DNA from: Candidatus Micrarchaeia archaeon
Lineage (GTDB): Archaea; Micrarchaeota; Micrarchaeia; Burarchaeales; JAVZCV01
Length of the DNA: 14,832 nucleotides
Reading direction: 5' to 3'
NCBI GenBank assembly: GCA_038874215.1
Contig: JAVZCV010000026.1
Coordinates: 1 to 14,832, forward strand
Shown: in pieces, positions 4,089 to 14,832 of the stretch
How positions within the stretch are numbered: position 1 is the stretch's first letter
Layout of the letters: each line of letters begins with the position of its first letter
Position numbers and translations under genes: made by a program
Notes under the pieces: generated by a model
The model's input: only the letters and a program-made list of their open reading frames with translations
What the model was told of the DNA's origin: nothing
Databases searched by the model: none

Positions 4089-4607
4089 TCACCCCAAACC
4101 AAAACCCACCACATCAAGAGCGTTCCTCGGCCCGTTTATCTCATATACCCTTGTGCCATTATGCACTATATAAACGTATGTTGTTCCATTCATGCCTGCT
4201 ATGCTGGCATAAAATACGCGCAATCCACCATACAGGTAGCTTGCCGTTTTAATGTTATCGTACTTCCCTTCCTTCTCACGCCTGAACATCTCTTGCTTGT
4301 TTGCATAACTTGCAGCATCCTCTATATTCCTAAACTCATATACCCTCTCATAGATTAGCGGAGTTTCATCAATTTTGTAGATTCTCTGCAACGCCCGCAC
4401 AATACCTGCCCTCTTCATGCTACTTGTTAAGTTAAACTCCTCATAGTTTCCCTCCATCCTACCGTATGGAGTAGAGCCACCCTGCAAAACCTTCTCCCCC
4501 TCACTGTATTCAGCTTCAACCCCTTGCTGGGTGCTCACCATCAAATAAACAGCCAAAGCGAATAAAACAAGAAGGAACACAAGCGCAGCGCCTTCACCAA
4601 AATTCAT
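4089..4607 (-). CDS. Hypothetical protein with N-terminal membrane anchor/signal (172 aa)
   Basis: Hydrophobic N-terminus (AALVFLLVLFALAVYLMV); ATGA overlap with the upstream response regulator stop; GGAGG upstream; ends 4 nt before the giant ORF start. Confidence 0.85.
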   Translation of the reverse strand: MNFGEGAALVFLLVLFALAVYLMVSTQQGVEAEYSEGEKVLQGGSTPYGRMEGNYEEFNLTSSMKRAGIVRALQRIYKIDETPLIYERVYEFRNIEDAASYANKQEMFRREKEGKYDNIKTASYLYGGLRVFYASIAGMNGTTYVYIVHNGTRVYEINGPRNALDVVGFGLG

Positions 4608-8556: not shown

Positions 8557-8619
8557 TGGTGCTGTTTGCAAACGATTATATACCCCCAAGCACCTAATTT
8601 TTATGCGGCCAGTGGTAGC

Positions 8620-10002
8620 ATGAAAATGCAAAGAAATAATCCCCAGCGTGCCCTCTTCATATTTCCAGCGTTGCTCATCCTTCTCTCCTCACTCTCCTTT
8701 TCTGCAGATTTGCGGGACTATTTCAAGGCTGATGAAAAATACTCTCTTGAAAACTTCGGCGAATACCAACTTGTGAGGATTGGTGGCCCAATCGCATTCA
8801 TAATAGACGGCAAAGGCATCGCCATTGAGAATGCGGCACTGATAGAGGAAATCATATCTGAATATGTGCATGAGAAGTCAATAAACGAATCTACTCTAAC
8901 AACCCGTGAGCTGAACGAGCTCGCATACCTGATTGGAAAGTTCAACGAATCTCGTGGCGGGGAGCTTGAATGCCGTTTTTACACCGGCACAGACAGGTTC
9001 CCGTGCGATGATAGGGGGGGATGCCAGTCCTCTTGCTACACCCCAGTATGCAAGGATGCGATGATGGGCTATGGCTGGGGCTTCCTTGATGCAGTCGCAA
9101 ACTTCTCAAAGCAAAGCCGCGTTATTGACGAAAAGGTTTCTAAACTCATCTTCGTTCTCAGAAACGGCGGGCTTGACGATGCAGAATCCGCATCATCCAT
9201 CCTCAAAGAAATACGCAATACGTCTTCCTCTCTATCAAGCAACCCACTATTTACGCACACATTCCTCTTCTGCCCAAGCCCAAAATACGATATGCAGTCA
9301 CTTAGCGAAGCCGAGAGAACAATAAACAACGCCATCCAGAGAATAAAGATGCTCACAAAACCGCGCCTTTATGCAAACGAACTTGCGGACATGGGAAGGG
9401 AGCGGAATTCCTTCAGAAAAAGCGTTGAGGCATGCCGAGATATGGCTGCGCTCTCCGAGAAAAATATCGCCGATTTGGAAAACAGGAGCAGGGACATGCC
9501 TTCTTTTGTTGAGATAAGTGGAGAAATAACAATCCTCAGACAGTCGCTGAGAAAGCTTGAGGAAGAATGCAAGGGATACGATTTCAGGAGTGCGAACAGA
9601 ACTTATTCCAGCCTTAACGAAATGGCAAACCACACAGCCGAGAAGCTGGAAACATTCGCATCGCTTTACCAAAACATAACCGCTCTCTACAACGAAACTC
9701 TTGCGCTTCTTGAAAGCGCAAACTCATCAGTAAAGGAGCAGGTTTCAGTATCTCTTTCCCTAATCGCCAGAGACCTCCCAACAGCAACGACGATAGATGA
9801 CCTAATGAATATAAAGAATGCCCTGAATGAGAACATTGCGAAGCTCCGCTCTCTACCCCAAGCCAGCGCTTCGGGAACGGTTGAAGGGCAGAAGAATCCT
9901 ATGGTTATCCAGGCTTTATTAGTAATCCTCCTCCTCATCCTCATCTCTACATTCGCCTACCACCGTTGGAGGAGGAAAAGGTATCCCCTTGAATATGTGT
10001 AA
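8620..10002 (+). CDS. Hypothetical single-pass membrane protein with extracellular Cys cluster and helical/coiled-coil stalk (~460 aa)
   Basis: Start placed at ATG 8620 (or 8626) because a signal peptide follows (RALFIFPALLILLSSLSFS/A); Cys cluster ECRFYTGTDRFPCDDRGGCQSSCYTPVC; about ten N-x-S/T sequons; C-terminal TM (ALLVILLLILISTFAY) then basic tail HRWRRKR. Confidence 0.87.
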   Translation: MKMQRNNPQRALFIFPALLILLSSLSFSADLRDYFKADEKYSLENFGEYQLVRIGGPIAFIIDGKGIAIENAALIEEIISEYVHEKSINESTLTTRELNELAYLIGKFNESRGGELECRFYTGTDRFPCDDRGGCQSSCYTPVCKDAMMGYGWGFLDAVANFSKQSRVIDEKVSKLIFVLRNGGLDDAESASSILKEIRNTSSSLSSNPLFTHTFLFCPSPKYDMQSLSEAERTINNAIQRIKMLTKPRLYANELADMGRERNSFRKSVEACRDMAALSEKNIADLENRSRDMPSFVEISGEITILRQSLRKLEEECKGYDFRSANRTYSSLNEMANHTAEKLETFASLYQNITALYNETLALLESANSSVKEQVSVSLSLIARDLPTATTIDDLMNIKNALNENIAKLRSLPQASASGTVEGQKNPMVIQALLVILLLILISTFAYHRWRRKRYPLEYV

Positions 10003-14168: not shown

Positions 14169-14206
14169 TAATATACATAAATGACTTGCAGGTTGGGGGT
14201 GCCGAA

Positions 14207-14485
14207 TTGGCTGAAAAACGCATTCATCTCATAATCAGCGGAATAGTCCAAGGCGTTTTTTTCAGGGCGCATACTCGCGAGAAGGCGAGGCAGCTCGGGC
14301 TCGTTGGCTGGGTGATGAACAGGGAAGATGGAAGCGTTGAATGCGTTGCAGAGGGGGAGGAAAGCGCACTTCGCTCCTTTCTTGAATGGTGCAAGGTCGG
14401 GCCTCCTTCTGCACGTGTGAGCGATGTAAAAGTAGAGCGGGAAGAGCCAAAGGGAGAATTCTCATCATTTTTTATACGCTACTGA
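14207..14485 (+). CDS. acyP: Acylphosphatase (92 aa)
   Basis: GIVQGVFFR, GWVMNREDGSVE, GPPSARV, F..F.IRY signature; TTG start after GGGGGTG ribosome site. Confidence 0.95.
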   Translation: MAEKRIHLIISGIVQGVFFRAHTREKARQLGLVGWVMNREDGSVECVAEGEESALRSFLEWCKVGPPSARVSDVKVEREEPKGEFSSFFIRY

Positions 14486-14752
14486 ATCGCTACACAAGGA
14501 CAACTTTAAAAACCTCATTTTTTCCAAATATCCAACATACTCCCTATTCAAATAGAAAGCGGCCACCTTTTTCCGCACTTTCCCAACATCCGCCATAATA
14601 TTCCTTCTCGCATATAAAATAAGCAATCCAATCTCTCATTCCCTATCCGCATACCCCCCCACTTTTTTAGCCCTTTTGGGGTATGCCACAAACTATTAAA
14701 AAAACAAGCCATTATATTTCTCTGTTTGCCAAACAAAGCATTTTCACCCGCT
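14486..14752 (+). promoter_or_regulatory. Putative CRISPR leader
   Basis: About 267 bp, AT-rich, homopolymer runs, no convincing ORF, TATA-like elements (14613-14620, 14694-14704, 14712-14719), directly abutting a CRISPR-like repeat. Confidence 0.6.
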
Positions 14753-14832
14753 GTTAGAAAACCAGTCCCGATGGAAAGGGAACTGTGACCTCATTTAACC
14801 TCCTCCACAACCATGTTTTTAGCCGTTAAGTT
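14753..14832 (+). CRISPR. Probable start of a CRISPR array truncated by the window edge: repeat 14753-14789, spacer 14790-14829, first 3 nt of next repeat 14830-14832
   Basis: 37-mer GTTAGAAAACCAGTCCCGATGGAAAGGGAACTGTGAC: GTT start, TCCC/GGGA stem, 3' octamer ACTGTGAC resembling ATTG(A/C)(A/G)AC tags. Followed by 40 nt of unrelated sequence and then GTT. Only one full repeat is visible and no cas genes are in the window. Confidence 0.7.

Follow-up and report, generated by a model that had tools for sequence, protein, structure and literature searches.

The end of a micrarchaeal contig very probably carries the start of a cas-remote type III-A CRISPR array

Dispersed CRISPR arrays that have a common leader and are served in trans by one cas locus are known from Methanocaldococcus jannaschii, Pyrococcus furiosus and Sulfolobus. 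A 36-37-nt repeat that forms a hairpin and ends in GAC, in turn, is the layout seen in other type III-A (Csm) systems that have been studied. The genome considered here, that of a DPANN-type archaeon of about 1.1 Mb, combines these features: its 37-nt repeat is of the hairpin type and ends in GAC, like type III-A repeats, and it contains an array that lies remote from cas genes but agrees with the array beside them in the repeat and, at 102 of 103 positions, in the leader. Compared with the archaea named above, it has only two, possibly three, such arrays, and the genome is much smaller. CRISPR systems are likewise on record for a small archaeon of the Micrarchaeota type, ARMAN-1, which harbors CRISPR-Cas9 (Burstein et al., 2017, cited in PMC5864196 and PMC6349945), but that system is of class 2, type II, whereas only class 1 systems (III-A and I-B) are known from the present genome, which gave no Cas9 match. 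For the ancestor of the DPANN archaea, a loss of CRISPR-Cas has been inferred (PMC5498576).

The stretch of DNA that was analyzed, referred to as the window in the following, consists of the first 14,832 nt of contig C26 (15,126 nt), and its end coincides with a 10-N scaffold gap in this contig. The assembly comprises 38 contigs with 1.13 Mb and is 91% complete. At the very end of the window, a 37-nt repeat (GTTAGAAAACCAGTCCCGATGGAAAGGGAACTGTGAC, 14753-14789, forward strand), which is identical to 18 further copies in the genome, is followed on the same strand by a unique 40-nt spacer (spacer 1, 14790-14829) and by GTT, the first 3 nt of a second repeat (14830-14832), which is interrupted by the gap. 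This architecture was found exactly as a preliminary description of the sequence had given it for 14753-14832, where it suspected the start of a CRISPR array at the window edge. The same description regarded the 37-nt unit as hairpin-forming, in line with a predicted fold of -9.4 kcal/mol (z = -2.19), which 4 of 200 shuffled sequences equaled in stability; the opposite strand folds slightly more weakly (-9.1 kcal/mol, z = -1.89). Its remark that array finders would overlook a single repeat also applies, in that the edge is missed if the window alone is scanned.

Past the ten Ns, C26 continues with ACTGTGAC, the final 8 nt of the 37-nt unit, and a 42-nt spacer, and further on with three perfect repeats and spacers of 37, 38 and 38 nt, until the contig ends in GTTAGAAAAC. 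Both visible ends of repeat 2 thus fit the unit, while its predicted continuation, AGAAAACCAGTCCC, is masked by the Ns. Between GTT and ACTGTGAC, the gap should contain AGAAAACCAGTCCCGATGGAAAGGGA, possibly plus further units; that is, additional repeat-spacer units may be hidden in it. Taking these findings together with those on the other contigs described below, we consider it very probable that positions 14650-14832 of the window represent the leader and the leader-proximal end of a genuine CRISPR array, which belongs to a type III-A (Csm) system and is located away from its cas genes. As spacer 1 is leader-proximal, it is presumably the newest spacer.

The preliminary description had allowed for the case that the 37-mer occurs only once, which does not hold. 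Across the genome, the repeat has 21 matches with at most three mismatches, 19 of them perfect, while a reversed control pattern yielded none, so that its multi-copy status is far above chance. These matches fall into three array segments. The segment on C26 has four copies, of which the visible ones are all perfect, and possesses a leader but no trailer. The one on C4 (45221-45785, reverse strand) has eight copies and is complete from leader to trailer within the contig. The one on C8 (37375-38026, reverse strand) has nine copies and a trailer but no leader, and reaches the contig end. The only imperfect copies are those that close the C4 array (three mismatches) and the C8 array (one mismatch), both leader-distal, and the orientation of the arrays is fixed by this degeneration of the terminal repeats at the leader-distal end. 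The spacers measure 36-42 nt and are all different, except for one 39-nt spacer that is found twice in the C8 array, in the third and in the last position (C8:37412-37450 and C8:37790-37828), which points to either a duplication inside the array or an assembly repeat. Consequently, the segments have what characterizes CRISPR arrays: at least three near-identical direct repeats in the range of 23-50 nt with unique spacers of similar length, an A+T-rich leader common to arrays with a degenerate terminal repeat at the opposite end, and, on C4, cas1 and cas2 genes that adjoin an array with the same repeat.

Both the C26 and the C8 arrays run to the ends of their contigs. A scripted scan for prefixes and suffixes of the repeat at contig ends flagged only C26; the end of C8 lies inside a spacer and escapes such detection. 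On grounds of parsimony, the leader end on C26 and the trailer end on C8 are probably parts of one array with at least 15 repeats, and no bridge between the two was found among reads or contigs. Accordingly, the genome has two, possibly three, arrays with the 37-nt repeat.

The sequence upstream of repeat 1, which had been described as leader-like, was found to match the leader of the C4 array. This CRISPR leader (14650-14752, forward strand) is 103 nt long with 60% A+T, and it is identical at 102 of 103 positions to its counterpart upstream of the first C4 repeat (C4:45786-45888, reverse strand). The two leaders differ only at position -17, and their similarity breaks off sharply at position -104. 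Their distal edge is formed by an 8-bp inverted repeat, CATACCCC ... GGGGTATG (14650-14685, forward strand), present in both leader copies, and a TATA-box-like element, TTATATTT, is located 41 to 34 nt upstream of repeat 1 (14712-14719, forward strand). As a general property, CRISPR leaders of this kind act as promoter and integration site (PMC7694759), and TTATATTT may well be the archaeal promoter of the pre-crRNA. In each leader copy searched (C26 and C4), the inner hairpin also gave a match to the Rfam family CRISPR-DR17, which, at 23.6 bits versus a gathering score of 42, lies below the threshold and was taken as chance.

Given the position of the array at a scaffold gap, it could be argued that the genome possesses just a single leader and array, namely the one on C4, and that the end of C26 was joined to it in error. 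The gap does fall inside repeat 2, and leader and repeat are both shared sequences, which de Bruijn graphs collapse. The stretch is found in a single sequencing run (share 0.71) and in no listed RNA run, and the DNA unitigs provided by Logan for the former are interrupted both in the leader and in the repeat, so that neither the N gap nor the contig ends are bridged by them. On the other hand, two distinct unitigs enter the leader at equal depth. The first, of 11,311 nt and with a depth of 10.9, extends from the unique flank in C26, on the side of the acylphosphatase gene, to 30 nt into the leader, and the second, of 1,082 nt and with a depth of 10.6, leads from the C4 flank into the leader. 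The depths of the C4 trailer (10.2) and of the C8 trailer (11.6) are similar, that of the repeat core is 255, and the similar depths of the flanks agree with a single genome in which the leader is entered from two separate places. Moreover, the leaders of C26 and C4 differ at position -17, as described above, and a second array must exist, since the C4 array has both its leader and its trailer and yet C8 has another trailer. We therefore regard an erroneous join as extremely unlikely and retain the view that C26 carries a leader and array of its own. Because the assembly is split into 38 contigs and is 91% complete, binning errors may nonetheless have occurred.

To which system the array belongs is indicated by the surroundings of its counterpart on C4, where cas2 and cas1 lie immediately upstream of the leader. 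With one exception, the genes of this locus are encoded on the reverse strand of C4. They are cas2 (45925-46197; Pfam Cas2, 63 bits), cas1 (46197-47198; Pfam Cas1, 217 bits), a cas4-like gene (47170-47730), whose NCBIfam score of 30.6 bits lies under the cut-off of 65, cas6 (48468-49391; 307 aa; PADLOC Cas6 model over the full length, 213 bits), csm6 with CARF, 6H and HEPN domains (49396-50796; TIGR02710 CARF protein, 173 bits, cut-off 84) and csm5 (50797-51924; a RAMP protein, NCBIfam 64 bits, cut-off 38). The exception, on the forward strand (47814-48545), encodes a Csa3-like CARF-wHTH protein, recognized by a domain match. The locus continues on C24 with csm4, which extends across the overlap with C4 (NCBIfam 135 bits, cut-off 55), csm3 (NCBIfam 206 bits, cut-off 90), csm2 (NCBIfam 46 bits, cut-off 30.6) and cas10/csm1 (TIGR02578, 397 bits, cut-off 170). 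The csm operon, in the order cas10, csm2, csm3, csm4, csm5, spans this overlap, in which the right end of C4 and the left end of C24 share about 100 nt with three mismatches within csm4, the latter being in frame throughout. The break between the two contigs looks like a strain-level difference that interrupted the assembly.

In its composition (cas10/csm1, csm2-csm6, cas6 and cas1-cas2, with the csm genes above the NCBIfam equivalog cut-offs), the locus shares the gene set of type III-A (Csm) loci. The catalytic motifs are retained as well: Cas10 has the GGDD motif and the HD motif LLHDLGK, and Csm6, when aligned to its nearest solved relative, Thermus thermophilus Csm6 (PDB 5fsh), has the R-N-x4-H motif of HEPN domains. 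The nearest solved relative of Cas10 is Thermococcus onnurineus Cas10/Csm1 (PDB 6kc0, 6mua and others), with low similarity in two stretches (E = 3e-37), and for the Cas6 encoded on C4, no solved relative was found at E <= 0.01. The HD motif of Cas10 (C24:4300-4422, reverse strand) is in frame but lies upstream of the first ATG, GTG or TTG of the reading frame, which means that the start codon is unusual or miscalled; cas10 may have a non-canonical start codon, or the sequence may contain an error. A GGAGGTG motif is found a few bases ahead of an in-frame ATT in this gene. With a cas10 that encodes HD and GGDD motifs, csm2-csm5 in an operon and a CARF-HEPN protein Csm6, the genes on C4 and C24 form what, judged by sequence, is a complete and apparently functional type III-A locus.

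The preliminary description had guessed at a link to type III systems from the appearance of the repeat, and had proposed a look for cas genes elsewhere in the genome. The complete locus on C4 and C24 bears out the guess, because an identical repeat and leader adjoin it. It had further stated that no cas genes are found on the leader side of the array, and indeed searches with Pfam and PADLOC found none among the ten ORFs of the window. Seven of these ORFs could be assigned to families: a 1371-aa VWA protein, a response regulator, a PAS/GAF histidine kinase, a LeuA/homocitrate-synthase-like enzyme, a LarA-N-domain protein, a NUDIX hydrolase and an acylphosphatase (about 14186-14485). One of 62 aa overlaps the leader and is probably spurious. 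A 478-aa ORF (8566-10002, forward strand) and a 172-aa ORF (4089-4607, reverse strand) have no family in Pfam and PADLOC, and for the former, the ESM Atlas returned nothing above 0.76 and no resemblance to cas genes.

By contrast, its suggestion that a class 2 association, such as type V, or a compact effector downstream of the array might come to light was not borne out. Neither TIGR01865 (Cas9) nor PF07282 (Cas12f1-like_TNB) has a match in the 91%-complete assembly, the genome-wide search covering the Cas9 and the Cas12f/TnpB-like families, and no class 2 effector was found among the ORFs that flank the arrays. Likewise, in searches with Pfam and PADLOC, no cas genes were detected beside the C8 trailer, whose neighbors include nrdR, an endonuclease III gene, a DUF123/GIY-YIG gene, the gene for SHMT and folD. 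The notion that the array serves an unrecognized compact or class 2 effector could at best appeal to three ORFs without a family match in the libraries scanned, namely the 478-aa and 172-aa ORFs of the window and one of 1806 aa on C7 (C7:23430-28850, forward strand; NCBIfam and PADLOC). As these do not adjoin the array, while its repeat and leader are found directly beside a full Csm locus with cas6 and cas1-cas2, and as the assembly gave no match for Cas9 or Cas12f/TnpB-like domains, we assign this notion a negligible probability. Instead, we infer that the window contains the leader end of a second, cas-remote array of the type III-A system, with a duplicated leader, and that this array is served in trans by the locus on C4 and C24.

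A cas-remote array might also be a silent relic, that is, an orphan left behind by a rearrangement and no longer transcribed or extended. Such an origin would agree with the lack of any cas gene within 14.7 kb on the leader side and, if C26 joins C8, on the trailer side. Decayed arrays, however, normally carry diverged repeats, whereas all visible repeats on C26 are perfect, the leader departs from the one next to the cas genes at just one of 103 positions, and the cas locus is intact and has retained its catalytic motifs. We therefore deem a relic very unlikely and favor an array that is still in use by the type III-A system.

How the array would operate can be outlined from what is known about this family of systems. 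The leader promoter, with the TATA-like box at 14712-14719, would drive the synthesis of a pre-crRNA, in which the Cas6 encoded on C4 would cleave each repeat near the 3' base of the hairpin, leaving an 8-nt 5' tag, ACUGUGAC. By analogy, the window array is thus predicted to be transcribed and its RNA to be cut by Cas6 so as to bear the 8-nt tag, and it would supply crRNAs to the Csm complex. This complex, composed of Cas10/Csm1 and Csm2-5, would load the crRNAs and recognize complementary transcripts. Target binding would then lead to RNA cleavage by Csm3 and switch on both the HD nuclease and the GGDD cyclase of Cas10, and the cyclic oligoadenylates made by the latter would activate the CARF-HEPN RNase Csm6 and probably also the CARF-wHTH protein Csa3. 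Finally, the Cas1-Cas2 module on C4, possibly together with the Cas4-like protein, could add new spacers at either array, since the leader-repeat junction is identical in both.

Some of the spacers are of interest in this context. The reverse complement of spacer 1, GGAGGAGGTTAAATGAG, resembles, by eye, a ribosome-binding site followed by ATG. Several spacers on C26, C4 and C23, including spacer 1, appear by the same visual comparison to be reverse complements of a Shine-Dalgarno-like GGAGG or GAGGTG followed by ATG. Anecdotally, then, protospacers appear to be concentrated where genes begin, in antisense orientation to the mRNA, and such antisense spacers over gene starts would be compatible with transcripts being targeted by RNA guides in the orientation given above. 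In total, at least 45 spacers are visible in the genome. Of these, 44 entries were compared with the genome itself, and none has a full-length protospacer there; the set was compiled without spacer 1 and the spacer that follows the gap, which form one entry spanning the Ns, and without partial spacers of less than 20 nt. One C23 spacer has 17 nt in common with C19:7618, within a glycosyltransferase-like ORF, and this match was taken as chance. The spacers of the C23 and C8 arrays have no match in GenBank phages, and three spacer cores, including a 26-nt core of spacer 1, have no exact match in IMG/VR.

Among the relatives of this archaeon, whose genomes range from 0.7 to 1.8 Mb, such systems are rare. 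Counting the present genome, 4 of 29 members of the order gave a match for Cas1; for Csm1, the count is 4 among 201 genomes sampled across the class, with none in the 28 others of the order. One relative, G199, has a Csm locus with a different repeat. The 37-nt repeat itself has no match with up to three mismatches in 40 genomes of relatives, none in IMG/VR, none in JGI metagenome contigs (with a 26-nt pattern and a looser 37-nt family pattern) and none to the CRISPR-DR families of Rfam; its 23-nt core has two single matches in five cas-bearing relatives, no more than the reversed control. A synteny search of named genomes with a neighboring 656-aa protein returned only an irrelevant Flavobacterium fragment with 32% identity. 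The archaeal character of the genome is apparent from markers such as an aEF-1beta domain, a member of the eRF1/pelota family, an ABCE1-like protein, ADP-PFK, an archaeal Pth2 and a D-aminoacyl-tRNA deacylase. A narrow full-text search of the literature yielded no description of type III-A systems in Micrarchaeota, and we claim no priority in this regard.

The array in the window is thus an ordinary case, remote from the cas genes and part of a standard type III-A system, and it reveals neither a new mechanism nor a new effector. What changes is the annotation, as a one-repeat edge that array finders skip is assigned to a multi-array type III-A system. In addition, a DPANN-type hot-spring archaeon of only about 1.1 Mb is seen to carry two complete class 1 CRISPR-Cas systems, which is of use to those who study the viruses and mobile elements that small symbiotic archaea harbor.

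The second of these systems, of type I-B, is separate from the type III-A system and lies outside the window, in C7:30010-38830 and C23:1-1652. On C7, it consists of cas6, a family-less gene for a 619-aa protein in the position of cas8, cas7, cas5, cas3, cas4, cas1b and cas2, followed by its own leader and by a 30-nt repeat, GTTTGAATAGGGCTATAGTAGGATTGAAAT, of which two copies are located at the end of C7 and 25 on C23. Two of the I-B spacers resemble the repeat of the other system. In the 3' part, spacer 3 of C23 (C23:179-216) and the 37-nt repeat agree at 24 of 26 positions, compared with a maximum of 18 in 300 shuffles, and the spacer represents a diverged, near full-length repeat of the 37-nt family. 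In this variant, a C-A mismatch in the stem is changed to a T-A pair, for which reason it looks like a real sister repeat. In spacer 11 (C23:717-752), 26 nt are followed by GTTAGAAAAC, the initial 10 nt of the 37-nt repeat, and the spacer thereby resembles a spacer-repeat junction of the family; junctions of at least 10 nt occurred in 2 of 2000 shuffles. By these similarities, spacers 3 and 11, two of the 24 complete ones on C23, are derived from arrays of the 37-nt-repeat family. That I-B spacers were copied from III-A-type arrays remains as a modest curiosity.

In other archaea, type I and type III systems that reside together are known to share crRNAs, which raises the question of whether the type I-B system on C7 uses the crRNAs of the window array, or has a share in them, so that they would not serve Csm alone. 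A complete I-B locus is indeed present in the same genome, and spacers from overlapping protospacers are found in both systems: spacers 4 and 6 of C8 and spacers 6 and 7 of C4 have cores of 18, 22 and 17-19 nt in common, in the same orientation, with spacers 6, 7 and 14 of C23. Such overlaps indicate that both systems have sampled the same invader. The I-B locus, however, is equipped with a cas6 and a leader of its own, and its 30-nt repeat is a different one, with ATTGAAAT at the end. The 37-nt repeat, which ends in ACTGTGAC, occurs only next to the csm locus or at a distance from cas genes. Hence, we judge a use by the I-B system to be highly improbable and hold to the assignment of the window array to Csm.

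The two C23 spacers allow for a more far-reaching idea. The acquisition of spacers from foreign prokaryotic genomes has been described in a study that masked CRISPR arrays (PMC12612501). Conceivably, arrays of the 37-nt family are mobile, either between strains or on mobile elements, and are themselves CRISPR targets, with the array in the window, whose duplicated 103-nt leader has sharp bounds, being a recently arrived or transposed copy and not a long-standing resident. We consider this unlikely, though less so than the alternatives discussed above; if true, a tiny archaeon would turn one of its CRISPR systems on those that carry the other.

Further observations concern the I-B array itself. 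Within C23, spacers 5 and 20 sample the same site, as do spacers 10 and 24, in variant form or from the opposite strand. Finally, a partial third spacer at the end of C7 (C7:38818-38830) corresponds to the start of C23 spacer 9 (C23:584-596), not to the start of C23, and the population probably holds I-B array variants that differ at the leader end.
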